This document shows positions 22,637 through 47,738 of a stretch of DNA of 64,000 bases, piece after piece; the first letter of the stretch is position 1, and each line of letters begins with the position of its first letter. Position numbers and translations under genes: made by a program. Below the pieces are notes generated by a model, which ran no database searches, was not told the origin of the DNA, and worked only from the letters and a program-made list of their open reading frames with translations. This stretch comes from Gemmatimonadales bacterium (GTDB taxonomy: Bacteria; Gemmatimonadota; Gemmatimonadetes; Gemmatimonadales; GWC2-71-9). The DNA is taken from assembly GCA_038321865.1 (NCBI GenBank), contig JBBQFH010000006.1, positions 174 to 64,173 on the forward strand, in the 5' to 3' direction.

Positions 22637-23194
22637 TTGCGAGGCGATCCAGTGGCGACCGATCTCCGCTATCCCATCGGGCCGTTCGCTTACGACGGCA
22701 TGACCACGGCGGAGAGCCGGCGCGAGCGCATCGAGCAGGTCGCCCGGGCGCCCGCCGCGTTCCGCTCGGCCATCTCGGGGCTCAGCGAAACCCAGCTCGA
22801 CACGCCATACCGGCCGGGGGGCTGGACGATCCGGCAGCTGATCCATCACATTCCCGACAGCCACCTGAACGCCTACACCCGCTTCAAGCTCGGCCTGACC
22901 GAGACGAATCCGACGATCCGCCCGTACGACGAAGCGCGCTGGGCGGAGCTGCCCGACGCGCGATCCGCACCGGCCGAGATGTCGCTGCGCCTGCTCGACG
23001 CGCTGCATGAGCGCTGGACCCTCATGCTCCGCTCGCTCGACGGCAGCGAGCTCGAACGGACGATTTTCCACCCGGAGCGCAATGCGACCATGACGCTGGA
23101 CGAGGTGCTCGCGCTCTATGCATGGCACGGCCGCCACCACGTGGCGCATGTGACGGCGCTCGCCGAGCGCGAGGGCTGGACGGCCGGGCGATGA
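22637..23194 (+). CDS. YfiT/DinB-family metal-dependent hydrolase (bacillithiol-transferase-like fold)
   Basis: The sequence is close to B. subtilis YfiT as I recall it: LRYPIGPF, QLDTPYRPGGWTIRQLIHHIPDSHLNAYTRFKL, IRPYDEARWAEL and LYAWHGRHHVAHV. The start is TTG 22637 or GTG 22652. Confidence 0.85.
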   Translation: MRGDPVATDLRYPIGPFAYDGMTTAESRRERIEQVARAPAAFRSAISGLSETQLDTPYRPGGWTIRQLIHHIPDSHLNAYTRFKLGLTETNPTIRPYDEARWAELPDARSAPAEMSLRLLDALHERWTLMLRSLDGSELERTIFHPERNATMTLDEVLALYAWHGRHHVAHVTALAEREGWTAGR

Positions 23195-43705: not shown

Positions 43706-45082
43706 TCAGTCGGCGCACAGCTCCTGCCGCGCGTGATCGATGCGATCGCGAAAGGCGCGGTCGCGCGTCATCTGCTGCTGCACTTTGTCCACGCTGTGAA
43801 TCACCGTCGAGTGATCGCGGCCGCCGAACGCCTGGCCGATTTCCACCAGCTGCATCTGCAGCAGCTCGCGCGCGAGATACATCGCGATCTGGCGCGGCAC
43901 GGTGAGCGTCTTGATGCGCGCCTTGCTGCGGAGGCCTTCGGGGGTCACCCCCCAGCGCCGGGCCACCACTTCCTGGACCTTGTTGATGGTCGGCAGCGGC
44001 TTTGGCTCGTTCAAGTCCTCGCCCGGCCTGATCTTGTCGGACAGCGCCTCGCGGGCGAGCTCGATCGAGATCTCCTTGTGCTTGAGCGAGGCGTACAGCA
44101 GCAACTTGATGATGCAGCCCTCGAGCTCCCGCACGCTCGAGCGCACGTGCTCCGCGATAAAACGCAGCACATCGTCGGGAATCGTGGTCTCCAGATGGTC
44201 CTGCTCCTGCTTCTTCCGGAGGATGGCGATCCGATGCTCCAGGTCGGGCTGGCCGATATCGGCCACCATGCCCCACTCGAAGCGGCTGATGAGCCGCGAC
44301 TCGAGGCCGGGAATCTCCTTCGGCGGCCGGTCCGAGGTCAGGACGATCTGCTTGTTGCCTTCGTACAGCGCATTGAAGGTGTGGAAGAACTCCTCCTGGG
44401 TCATCTCCTTGCCTTCGAGGAAATGCACGTCGTCCACCAGGAAGAGGTCCACGTCGGCCCGGTAGCGGCGCCGGAACTCCGGCATCGTCCGGCCGTGGAT
44501 GCTCTCGATGACTTCGTTGATGAACTGCTCGGCACCGACGTACAGGATACGGGTGCTGGGATTGTGCTGGCAGACCGCGTGGGCGATCGCCTGCATGAGA
44601 TGGGTCTTGCCCAGCCCCGTCGCGCCGTAGATGAAGAGCGGGTTGTAGGTCTTGCCCGGCGTCTCCGCGGCGGCGTGCGCGGCGGCGGCGGCGAGCTCGT
44701 TCGACTTGCCGATGACGAAGGTGTCGAAGGTGTACCGTTCGTTGAGCGGCTGGGTGCTCGGATTGACGGGCGTGACAATCGTGGCGGCCGGAGGCGCCAC
44801 GAAGAAGTCCATCTGGGGGCGCTTCTGGCGGTCTTCCTGGACGCGAAACACGACGGCCGTGTCCTGGCCGAGCAACGGCCGGGCCAGGCGCGACAGGATC
44901 GCAGAGTGCTTCGACTCGTTCCATTCGACCGCGAACTGATCCGGCGCGCCGACGATCAGCCGGCCCTCGTCGAGCGCGATCGCCTCGGTGGGCTCGAGCC
45001 AGGTCCGGATCGTATGGTCTGGAAGTTCGCGATGCGCCTCATCGAGGATGCGCTTCCATGCTTCTTTGGCGGACAGCTGCAT
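43706..45082 (-). CDS. dnaA: Chromosomal replication initiator protein DnaA
   Basis: It has Walker A (GATGLGKTHLMQA), box VII and sensor motifs, and the C-terminal DNA-binding signature (GGRDHSTVIHSVDKV). 458 aa. Confidence 0.97.
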   Translation of the reverse strand: MQLSAKEAWKRILDEAHRELPDHTIRTWLEPTEAIALDEGRLIVGAPDQFAVEWNESKHSAILSRLARPLLGQDTAVVFRVQEDRQKRPQMDFFVAPPAATIVTPVNPSTQPLNERYTFDTFVIGKSNELAAAAAHAAAETPGKTYNPLFIYGATGLGKTHLMQAIAHAVCQHNPSTRILYVGAEQFINEVIESIHGRTMPEFRRRYRADVDLFLVDDVHFLEGKEMTQEEFFHTFNALYEGNKQIVLTSDRPPKEIPGLESRLISRFEWGMVADIGQPDLEHRIAILRKKQEQDHLETTIPDDVLRFIAEHVRSSVRELEGCIIKLLLYASLKHKEISIELAREALSDKIRPGEDLNEPKPLPTINKVQEVVARRWGVTPEGLRSKARIKTLTVPRQIAMYLARELLQMQLVEIGQAFGGRDHSTVIHSVDKVQQQMTRDRAFRDRIDHARQELCAD

Positions 45083-45219
45083 CTACACTCGAAAACTCGT
45101 GGAGGTGATCCAAGGGCAGACGATGTTACGAGCGCGGTGTGGAAAAGTCAAATCGTAAGAATGCGTCCTTGACGGATGGATTTTCACTCGTCCGGCACGT
45201 CGCGTCCCGTCCCGCATGC

Positions 45220-45248
45220 TTGACCTGTTCCCGCCCTCCCGCTACTTT
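45220..45248 (+). promoter_or_regulatory. Candidate sigma70-type promoter for rpmH-rnpA
   Basis: TTGACC (45220-45225), a 17-nt spacer and TACTTT (45243-45248) lie 29 nt upstream of the rpmH ATG. GAGGAG at 45262-45267 serves as the ribosome-binding site. Confidence 0.5.
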
Positions 45249-45276
45249 CCCGGGCTTACTTGAGGAGCCTTGACCG

Positions 45277-45438
45277 ATGAAGCCGTCGTATCGTCCGCGC
45301 AACAAGCGCCGGATCGCCAAGCATGGATTCCGCGCCCGCATGGCCACCCGCTGGGGCCGTGCGGTCCTGTCGCGCCGCCGCAAGAAGGGCCGCAAGCAGC
45401 TCGTCGTCTCGATTCCGTCGAAGCACGGGGGATCCTGA
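45277..45438 (+). CDS. rpmH: 50S ribosomal protein L34
   Basis: Hand translation gives [53 protein letters not shown], which carries the L34 signature HGFRxRMxTxxGRxVLxRRRxKGRK. It is not in the ORF track because it is only 53 aa. Confidence 0.93.
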
Positions 45439-45788
45439 CGCCAGCGGAACGCCTCACGCGGGCCAACCGGCTCGCGCGGGCGTCCGATATCCGTCGCTGC
45501 CTGAACACCGGCCGGCGCCGCAGGACCGAGCATCTCGAGATGATCTGGGCCGACAACACAACGGGCCACCCGCGCATGGGACTGATCGTACCCAAGTTCC
45601 AGTTCAACGCGGTGGCCCGCAATCGTCTGCGGCGGCGCCTCAAGGAAATCTGGCGCCGCGACATCCGGGCCATGCAGCCGGCGTGGGATCTCGTGATCCG
45701 CGCCCGCCGCGAGGCCTACTCCGCATCGTTCGATGCGCTGCGCCACGAGCTCCTTGGCTGGCGTGATGTGACGCTGGCCGCCGAGTGA
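45435..45788 (+). CDS. rnpA: RNase P protein component (conserved core; true start unresolved, see findings)
   Basis: The sequence [17 protein letters not shown]...[29 protein letters not shown] contains the RNR motif. The coordinates use CTG 45435, which overlaps the rpmH stop. The only canonical upstream in-frame start is TTG 45270 (ORF 45270-45788, 172 aa). ATG 45540 would truncate the conserved N-terminus. Confidence 0.8.
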
Positions 45789-45792
45789 CGCC

Positions 45793-46023
45793 ATGCTGTC
45801 GCTCGGGCGACTGCCCCGCCGGATCATCTCGCTTCCCATCCGCGGCTACCAACGATTCATCTCGCCGGCGCTCCCGCCGTCGTGCCGCTTCACGCCGTCC
45901 TGCTCCGCCTACGCGCTCGAAGCCCTCAGCCGGCACGGCGCGCTGCGCGGATCGTGGCTCGCGGCGCGCCGGCTCGTGCGATGCCATCCGTTCAATGCCG
46001 GTGGCGTCGATCCCGTCCCCTGA
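45793..46023 (+). CDS. yidD: Membrane protein insertion efficiency factor YidD
   Basis: The sequence [49 protein letters not shown] is the diagnostic YidD sequence. Confidence 0.9.
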
Positions 46024-46043
46024 TGTCGTGACCTAGAGAGACC

Positions 46044-47738
46044 ATGGAACGTCGTACGATCTGGGCTATCCTCCTCATGATGACCATCGCCATCGCACCG
46101 GCGTTCTTCATCAAGCGCAACTCGGCGGCGATCAAGCCCGCACCGCCGCCGGTCACGATCGACAGCACCCGCGCCGCGCCGGCCGACAGCACGCCCGCCG
46201 TGGCCGCCACCGCCCGGCGCGACACGACGGCCGCGCCGACGGCCGCGCCGTCGAGTGCGCCGGAAGACACCGTCGTCGTTACCTCCGACCTCTACCGCTA
46301 CCGCATCAGCACCCGCGGCGCCCGGCTGGTGGGCGCGGAGCTCACCCGCTACAAGTCGTTGGCGGCGGCCGATCACGGGGCGCCGGTCGAGCTGTTGCGT
46401 CCGGGCAGCTCGATCCTCGGTCTCGCCATCGTGAGCAACGGGGACACGGTGCGGCTCGACAACTGGGTCTTCACCCCGTCCGCCACCTCGCTCGCGGTGC
46501 AGGGGCCGACGCCGCTGACGCTCTCCGCCACCCAGGGCGCCTACTCGGCCGCACTCACGTACACCTTCACCCCCGACTATCAGATCGCGATTGCCGGCCA
46601 CGTCACCGGCCTGGGCCCCAACGGCGCCCTGCTGCTGGTGGATCTCGGCGACGGTTTCCGGAACGCCGAGGCCGATTCGGTGCAGAACCAGCGCGCGTTC
46701 AGCTTCGTGGTCAAGAACGACCAGGCGCGCCGGAACGATTTCGCCGGGCTCAAGGCGGGCGTGCCGACCGTGGTGAGCGGGCCGTTCGAGTGGGTGGCGG
46801 TGAAATCGAAGTACTTCGTGATCGGGCTGTTCGCCTTCGATTCGACATCGACCAGCGGGCGGATCAGCGGCGTCACCGCCCTCGCCCCGGCGAATGCGCC
46901 AAAACACCCGACCGAAGCCCGCGTGCGCATCACGCTGCCGGTCACCTCGGCCGGCGCCCTGGCCTACCGGCTCTACGCCGGTCCGATGGAGCATCCGCGC
47001 CTCAAGGCGATCGGCCACGAATTCGATGACGCCAACCCGTACGGCTGGCCCGGCTTCCGCACGGTCATCCGCTTCTTTGCCGTGCCGGTGCGGTGGCTGC
47101 TGGTCGCGATGCACGAGAACCTGCACCTCGCCTACGGCGCCTGCCTGATCCTGTTCGGGATCCTGGTGCGGTTGCTGCTGTGGCCACTCAATTCGAAGGC
47201 GATGCGCCAGAACATGGCGATGCAGGCGGTGCAGCCGCTGGTGAAGACGGCCCAGGAGCGCTACAAGGACGATCCGAAGAAACAGCAGGAGGAGATGTTC
47301 CGGCTGTACAAGGAACACAACGTCAACCCCATGGGCGGCTGCTGGCCGATGCTGCTGCCGATGCCGGTGCTGCTGGCGCTGTTCTTCGTGTTCCAGTACA
47401 GCATCGAGCTCCGCGGCGCCTCGTTTCTCTGGCTGCCGGACCTGGCGAGCAAGGATCCGTTCTACATCCTGCCGATCGTCATGGGGCTGTCCATGTACGT
47501 GCTGAGCAAGGTGGGACAGATGGGGATGGAGCCCAATCCCCAGATGCAGATGACGACGTACATCATGCCGGTCTTCATGACCGTCATCTTCATCAACTTT
47601 GCGTCGGGCCTGAATCTGTATTACGCCGTCAGCAACATCGCCAGCATTCCGCAGCAGTGGCTCCTGGCACAGGAGCGGCTCAAGCGCATGCCGCCGGCGC
47701 CGAAGGCCGCCAAGCCGAAGCCCGCGCGACCGGCCTAG
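46044..47738 (+). CDS. yidC: Membrane protein insertase YidC
   Basis: An N-terminal TM helix and large periplasmic domain are followed by the conserved core (WPLNSKAMRQNMAMQAVQP...MFRLYKEHNVNPMGGCWPMLLPMPVLLALF...LWLPDLASKDPFYILPI). Confidence 0.95.
   Translation: MERRTIWAILLMMTIAIAPAFFIKRNSAAIKPAPPPVTIDSTRAAPADSTPAVAATARRDTTAAPTAAPSSAPEDTVVVTSDLYRYRISTRGARLVGAELTRYKSLAAADHGAPVELLRPGSSILGLAIVSNGDTVRLDNWVFTPSATSLAVQGPTPLTLSATQGAYSAALTYTFTPDYQIAIAGHVTGLGPNGALLLVDLGDGFRNAEADSVQNQRAFSFVVKNDQARRNDFAGLKAGVPTVVSGPFEWVAVKSKYFVIGLFAFDSTSTSGRISGVTALAPANAPKHPTEARVRITLPVTSAGALAYRLYAGPMEHPRLKAIGHEFDDANPYGWPGFRTVIRFFAVPVRWLLVAMHENLHLAYGACLILFGILVRLLLWPLNSKAMRQNMAMQAVQPLVKTAQERYKDDPKKQQEEMFRLYKEHNVNPMGGCWPMLLPMPVLLALFFVFQYSIELRGASFLWLPDLASKDPFYILPIVMGLSMYVLSKVGQMGMEPNPQMQMTTYIMPVFMTVIFINFASGLNLYYAVSNIASIPQQWLLAQERLKRMPPAPKAAKPKPARPA

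Follow-up and report, generated by a model that had tools for sequence, protein, structure and literature searches.

In a Gemmatimonadales bacterium (GenBank assembly GCA_038321865.1, contig JBBQFH010000006.1), the genes rpmH, rnpA, yidD, yidC and mnmE follow one another in this order within the window, i.e., the whole stretch of 64,000 nucleotides (nt) that was analyzed, and the same order is repeated at related loci. This work concerns the boundary between the first two genes, which encode ribosomal protein L34 and the protein component of RNase P (RnpA), and in particular the codon at which translation of rnpA begins. Read codon by codon from the in-frame stop TGA at 45261, the rnpA frame contains a single ATG, GTG or TTG upstream of the conserved core of the protein, TTG 45270, and the next such codon is found only at ATG 45540. 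An original prediction, made from the letters of the window and a list of its open reading frames (ORFs), had already noted this gap and had proposed three possible starts: TTG 45270, with rpmH embedded in an rnpA of 172 amino acids; CTG 45435, whose last two bases also belong to the rpmH stop codon (CTGA) and which gives 117 amino acids; and ATG 45540, which gives 82 amino acids. The gap is borne out by the codon walk, all three lengths are correct, and the two spacings given for the Shine-Dalgarno (SD) sequence of rpmH are confirmed (coordinates of all features in Table 1).

The identity of both genes is likewise as predicted, the Pfam matches confirming that rpmH encodes L34 and that homology to RnpA begins at about the end of rpmH. 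In the 172-amino-acid ORF (45270-45788) the RnpA domain covers residues 62-161 (profile positions 1-101 of 109), residue 60 pairs with residue 4 of the RNase P protein chain of T. maritima (3q1q_A), and RnpA chains in the PDB match the protein of the window with E-values down to 1e-7. A start at CTG 45435 would yield a protein of 117 amino acids, colinear with the solved RnpA structures of 117-119 amino acids, and in the aligned loci codon-periodic conservation in the rnpA frame is seen 3' of the junction. The L34 of this clade carries a C-terminal tail of about eight residues (IPSKHGGS; codons 47-53, 45415-45435) past the end of the Pfam L34 model, in which K49-H50-G51 is invariant and which contains both an SD-like purine tract and the proposed rnpA start. 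It looks as if rpmH had been lengthened through a former ribosome-binding site of rnpA.

The comparison rests on two sets of relatives. Searching proteins with the 172-amino-acid ORF gave over 100 clusters that were 60-85% identical to it. Among genomes sampled at one per species, 417 relatives were detected; the best 80 were compared, nearly all labelled as metagenome-assembled genomes (MAGs) of Gemmatimonadales or Gemmatimonadota, and named Gemmatimonas proteins are absent from the best 120 protein matches. A further 85 loci came from a metagenome scan seeded with a divergent relative and from five contig look-ups. After removal of duplicates, 141 distinct rpmH-rnpA junctions were scored, with an identity of the RnpA core to that of the window ranging from 59 to 87%. 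At all loci rnpA reads in the -1 frame with respect to rpmH, and rpmH has 53 codons in all 80 species loci, a single metagenome locus among all loci differing (L118, with 52). One genome labelled 'Bacillota bacterium' (GCA_050257015.1, contig JBLMWC010000012.1; L001/L165) carries a dnaA-rpmH-rnpA-yidD-yidC locus with an RnpA 82-84% identical to that of the window, and this MAG is probably mislabelled or contaminated, since the locus groups with Gemmatimonadales.

The junction reads CTGA in 132 and TTGA in three of the 141 distinct sequences (78 and two, respectively, among the 80 species) and ATGA or GTGA in none, so that the 4-nt overlap of start and stop codon is kept in 135 of 141, and a start triplet which in the window is none of ATG, GTG or TTG is canonical (TTG) in only three. 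The prospect of ATG or GTG at this position in relatives was therefore not borne out, and the nearly exclusive presence of CTG is the more interesting outcome. Three letters of the CTGA are set by the stop codon, but the C ends the final sense codon of rpmH. This last codon is varied (TCC, GCC, CGC, AGC, TTC, CAC, GGC, GTC, CGT and TCT), which indicates that L34 places no constraint on its last residue, and its third base is nonetheless nearly fixed: before a TGA stop it is C in 132 sequences, T in three, and never A or G. With an entropy of 0.17 it is the lowest among the variable third positions of rpmH, the other four-fold sites lying at 0.8-1.9, and serine codons elsewhere in rpmH are mainly TCG.

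A canonical start codon is frequently missing altogether. Within the interval that follows the closest in-frame stop upstream and extends 12 codons beyond the CTG, no ATG, GTG or TTG occurs in the open rnpA frame of 26 of the 80 species and of 38 of the 132 sequences with a CTG junction, in which the same near-cognate triplet nevertheless stands at the orthologous position. Since the junction repeats in 132 of 141 sequences, 38 of them devoid of any canonical start, the lack of such a start in the window can be due neither to chance nor to sequencing error. Stops in the rnpA frame inside rpmH, the nearest of which lies just five codons 5' of the CTG (L148), restrict the start to the junction, at most four codons 5' of the CTG. 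Between the most downstream of these stops and the conserved core, the sole conserved near-cognate triplets are the CTG and the neighboring ACG (Thr57). Consistent with this placement, the NCBI annotation of GCA_050257015.1 sets the rnpA start at the homologous CTG with a 4-nt overlap, and several other Gemmatimonadales RnpA entries of NCBI start with MTPS... at the homologous position. A literature search found no paper describing this rnpA start, nor did it turn up, for this clade, N-terminal or ribosome-profiling data that bear on where rnpA is initiated.

A second conserved signal lies immediately upstream. When a generic 3'-tail sequence of 16S rRNA was slid along 140 sequences, the strongest anti-SD duplex peak was that of the rpmH SD itself (mean -8.1 kcal/mol), whose GGAGG columns are conserved at -14 to -10 in 79 aligned loci. 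A second peak of nearly the same depth (mean -7.9 kcal/mol, and -5 kcal/mol or lower in 97% of the 140 sequences) is found at rpmH nt 147-155 and corresponds to a GGRRG tract within the last three tail codons of rpmH, ending 3 nt 5' of the CTG. Codon choice in this tract is strict: in every one of the 80 species, Gly codon 51 is GGG or GGA and His codon 50 CAC, while Gly codons 27 and 38 are mainly GGC and His codon 16 is split evenly between CAT and CAC. The constraint appears to be on purines and not on an amino acid, since the residue encoded in the alternative frame varies among Gly, Arg, Glu and Ala. We infer that the tract is a putative site of ribosome binding or tethering for rnpA. No conserved RNA structure was detected at the junction by RNAalifold (25 sequences, +/-60 nt), which gave -3.5 kcal/mol with essentially no covariation. 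Elsewhere in rpmH, His codon 16 (45322-45324) is CAT in 40 and CAC in 40 of the 80 species, and 66 of the 80 use GGA or GGG for Gly 17, which is unusual for a genome of 69% GC.

A natural perturbation of the junction is provided by six sequences (L081, L085, L086, L089, L094 and L131) in which rpmH ends with TAA and the junction triplet becomes CTA or GTA. All six have a TTG in an open frame either at +17 (six codons 3') or at -85 (28 codons 5'), as opposed to 43 of the 132 sequences with a CTG junction (Fisher p=0.0016, uncorrected for phylogeny). These lineages fit the view that the CTG is a functional start that had to be replaced once destroyed, and in a TAA-stop lineage the +17 codon is probably used as such. 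Neither position qualifies as a general start: only roughly every second sequence has NTG as its Leu codon at +17, the others having CTC or TTC, and the NTG at -85, which derives from a Trp codon of L34, is canonical in about 30% and cut off by stops in some. In L081 and L131 the upstream TTG would make a partly nested rnpA with an extension of 28 amino acids.

Full nesting of rpmH within rnpA, which a start at TTG 45270 (7 nt 5' of the rpmH ATG) would produce by adding an out-of-frame extension of 55 amino acids, appears very improbable for this window. The arrangement has an experimental precedent in Thermus, where, in the account given in PMC9841429, which cites Feltens et al. 2003, the two genes overlap completely, both start at AUGs of a single AUGGAUG that is served by one SD, and production of the long protein has been demonstrated. 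Moreover, the frame of the window is open from 45264 across rpmH with the TTG available, two relatives have GTG (L001) or TTG (L072) at the same position, and one protein (P0042) begins with M there. Species with a stop in the alternative frame are also fewer than in a column-shuffle null over the 80 species (17 versus 23.5 +/- 2.3; 18 stops observed versus 27 expected), the -1 frame being open across rpmH in 63 of 80 as against about 56 expected. However, such an open frame is to be expected because rpmH third positions are G or C, as had been cautioned for DNA of high GC content, and the mild stop deficit can be ascribed to TpA avoidance and shared ancestry and is not taken as support for a coding extension. 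Stops at seven positions within rpmH break the rnpA frame, affecting 17 of 80 species and 27 of 141 sequences; at -7, a canonical codon is found in just three species of the 80, and L008, L011 and L003, the closest relatives, have CTG; TTG 45270 is only 2 nt from the SD; and the common TTG at -16 belongs to the rpmH SD itself (TTGGAGG). Nor does the extension behave as a protein, for its residues track synonymous changes of rpmH with radical swaps (W/R 40:40, H/D 43:35), the four-fold sites of rpmH vary there as much as elsewhere, and neither Pfam nor the PDB holds a homolog. Two of the checks that the original prediction had suggested, namely whether the rnpA frame stays open through rpmH in relatives and whether synonymous sites are constrained in both frames, thus speak against nesting; stops in relatives were what it had held to be decisive, and on this comparative evidence the nested arrangement is refuted as a feature of the clade.

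The opposite solution, a truncated RnpA of 82 amino acids initiated at ATG 45540, deserves next to no credence either: this is the first ATG in frame past the junction, and some gene callers give similar truncated calls of 88-94 amino acids in relatives (P0121, P0123 and P0139), but the 35 codons upstream (...GRRRR) encode one of the best-conserved stretches of the protein and are codon-periodic in the rnpA frame, which excludes this option. They also fall within the Pfam domain, whose match begins at profile position 1, and can be aligned to the N-terminal portion of RnpA structures that have been solved; the Met is replaced by Ile in several relatives. Hardly more credible is an L34-RnpA fusion produced by programmed -1 frameshifting near the end of rpmH, with the SD-like tract as stimulator. 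The relative frame of rnpA and the position of the tract just 5' of an invariant UGA-C stop context would suit it, and the junction superficially resembles the prfB site AGGGGGUAUCUUUGAC, the prfB and dnaX signals both employing internal SD elements. Yet there is no slippery heptamer of the X XXY YYZ type, the nucleotides between tract and stop vary (GGATCC, AGCGCC, GGCTCC, CGGGCC and AGCCGC), a short SD spacing stimulates +1 and not -1 shifts, the stop in L148 would leave four codons for any shift, and the conserved downstream RNA structure was lacking in the RNAalifold analysis. The only apparent L34-RnpA fusion in the databases (P0180, an ENA contig, 186 amino acids with both Pfam domains) changes frame twice, at L34 residue 28 and close to the C-terminus, and was rejected as an indel artefact. 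Initiation at ACG 45438, instead of or besides the CTG and served by the same SD-like tract, is improbable, albeit the most plausible of these alternatives. ACG belongs to the same weak near-cognate class as CUG in older work on E. coli; 132 of 141 sequences have it, among them all six with a TAA stop and no CTG, its third position is G in 74 of 79 sequences, and its spacing of 6 nt from the GGRRG is more typical. Nine sequences, on the other hand, have ACC or ACA, all of them retaining the CTG, and it is the junction codon that swaps with canonical TTG in three sequences, as a start codon would; the A is set by the stop codon anyway, and a conserved Thr as residue 2 accounts equally well for the AC. 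That the TAA lineages have all gained a canonical TTG suggests that ACG alone is insufficient.

Taken together, the comparative data strongly support the CTGA-coupled start that had been the second of the three proposals: rnpA is likely co-transcribed with rpmH and translated from CTG 45435 into a product of 117 amino acids, translation being coupled to that of rpmH at a conserved weak CUG. Several points weigh against this conclusion. The spacing of 3 nt between SD-like tract and CTG is short for de novo initiation, and the GGR-rich tract is kept in the TAA-stop lineages that lost the CTG, so that the L34 tail (K-H-G) may account for some of its conservation. The compensation seen in those lineages amounts to only about two independent changes from TGA to TAA. 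Start codons usually drift among ATG, GTG and TTG, and the total lack of ATG and GTG requires an extra assumption, namely selection for weak initiation; the adjacent ACG is nearly as conserved and better spaced, leaving the initiating triplet uncertain by one codon.

Table 1. Features of the rpmH-rnpA region, in positions of the window
Feature	Position	Strand	Basis or remark
dnaA	43706-45082	-	Pfam match to DnaA
rpmH SD, GAGGAG	45262-45267	+	9 nt 5' of ATG 45277, 2 nt from TTG 45270
TTG, sole canonical start in the rnpA frame 5' of the core	45270-45272	+	judged non-functional for rnpA
rpmH, ribosomal protein L34, 53 amino acids	45277-45438 (ATG 45277 to TGA 45436-45438)	+	Pfam PF00468, E=3e-17, profile positions 1-43 of 44
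SD-like purine tract GGGGG (consensus GGRRG) in the rpmH tail	45427-45431	+	putative ribosome-binding or tethering site of rnpA
CTG, proposed rnpA start, sharing CTGA with the rpmH stop	45435-45437	+	comparative conservation
ACG (Thr57), neighboring conserved near-cognate codon	45438-45440	+	candidate alternative or secondary start, one codon 3' of CTG
rnpA, RNase P protein component, proposed 117 amino acids	45435-45788 (stop TGA 45786-45788)	+	Pfam PF00825, E=6e-23
yidD, gene after rnpA	45793-46023	+	Pfam PF01809, E=3e-31
yidC	46044-47738	+	Pfam match to YidC; followed by mnmE

Around the junction, a consensus scan of the + strand detected neither a terminator nor a promoter-like site between rpmH and rnpA, and a scan of 44900-46100 against Rfam returned no family of note. 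The divergent genes dnaA and rpmH are separated by a spacer of 194 nt (45083-45276), which contains a candidate rpmH promoter (TTGACC at 45220-45225, a 17-nt spacer and TACTTT at 45243-45248) scoring under the threshold of the consensus scan; across 79 loci its columns show partial conservation (T/A at -34/-33 and T/T at -30/-29). If real, it would give a 5' untranslated region of about 20 nt and would place most of the upstream in-frame 'starts' of relatives outside the mRNA.

How a coupled CUG start could work can be outlined from these elements. Ribosomes completing L34 would terminate at the rpmH UGA and may be tethered there through base-pairing between the 3' end of their 16S rRNA and the GGRRG located 3 nt 5' of the CTG, and a small fraction of them would then re-initiate on the near-cognate CUG with initiator tRNA. 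A weak start codon together with a short SD spacing would act as a built-in attenuator, yielding little RNase P protein from a highly translated cistron. On this reading the 55-codon open frame from TTG 45270 owes its existence to the GC-rich third positions of rpmH and encodes no functional protein. For comparison, CUG initiates at about 1-2% of the level of AUG in E. coli (bioRxiv 10.1101/063800). A plausible purpose of such an arrangement, we infer, is the step down from ribosomal-protein output to low output of RNase P protein, achieved with no terminator or second promoter. It is also conceivable, although here we are in some doubt, that selection keeps the junction weak (CUG, rarely UUG, never AUG or GUG) and that re-initiation gives about 1% as much RNase P protein as L34; selection for weakness is suggested by the complete absence of ATG and GTG where these would be synonymous for L34.

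The arrangement combines two known phenomena, 4-nt start/stop coupling and a conserved near-cognate start. Overlaps of 4 nt are the standard geometry of termination-reinitiation, e.g., in trpB-trpA (PMC10666635). As in such ATGA or GTGA pairs, the start of rnpA shares its last two bases with the upstream TGA, the SD lies within the preceding gene, and neither a spacer nor a promoter or terminator separates the two; in contrast with them, the triplet is CTG, rarely TTG and never ATG or GTG in about 135 sequences, and the SD spacing is 3 nt. Because ordinary ATGA and GTGA overlaps occur elsewhere in the window (at 23192, 30665 and 5825), the CTG is particular to the rpmH-rnpA junction. A conserved non-canonical start in a housekeeping gene is also known from E. 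coli infC, encoding initiation factor 3 (IF3), which begins with AUU. In both cases the weak near-cognate start of an essential gene would be kept by selection across species with no drift to AUG, but rnpA has no known autoregulatory logic, and its weak codon would be joined to obligatory coupling with a ribosomal-protein cistron, which suggests the setting of a stoichiometry and not feedback.

With Thermus, the locus shares an out-of-frame overlap of rpmH and rnpA and the tying of rnpA expression to the translation signals of rpmH and, in this particular window, a start-like TTG just 5' of the rpmH ATG; it differs in that the overlap is limited to the last 4 nt of rpmH, stops interrupt the long frame in one out of every five relatives, and the upstream start is not conserved. 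The Thermus arrangement is thus not common to this GC-rich lineage, despite a similar-looking sequence. In E. coli, rpmH and rnpA are co-transcribed, the output of RnpA is far under that of L34, and a spacer between the genes supplies rnpA with a GTG start and an SD of its own. The Gemmatimonadales share this gene order, but their L34 is about eight residues longer C-terminally, with the ribosome-binding signals of rnpA inside the tail.

One immediate consequence concerns annotation. Database lengths of RnpA in this clade (proteins P0001-P0182) are 88, 94, 111, 116-120, 145 and about 175 amino acids, reaching up to 293, and the main classes can be traced to their source: internal Met codons (88-94), the CTG read as M by NCBI (116-120), the NTG of the L34 Trp codon (145) and the TTG in the rpmH SD (about 175). 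Since gene callers require ATG, GTG or TTG and a canonical start is missing, these inconsistent lengths are a systematic artefact, and the 117-amino-acid RnpA is the defensible form, most other calls being artefacts.

Beyond annotation, the junction would represent a clade-wide natural case of a conserved CUG start in an essential bacterial gene, in which the synonymous sites of an overlapping gene offer direct evidence of selection on one nucleotide. It also provides a testable model of how a low-abundance protein may be made from the transcript of a very abundant ribosomal protein with neither a terminator nor a separate promoter. If selection for weak initiation is real, the junction would be a hard-wired setter of stoichiometry, and, as IF3 discriminates against CUG, the supply of RNase P protein could follow IF3 level or growth rate.

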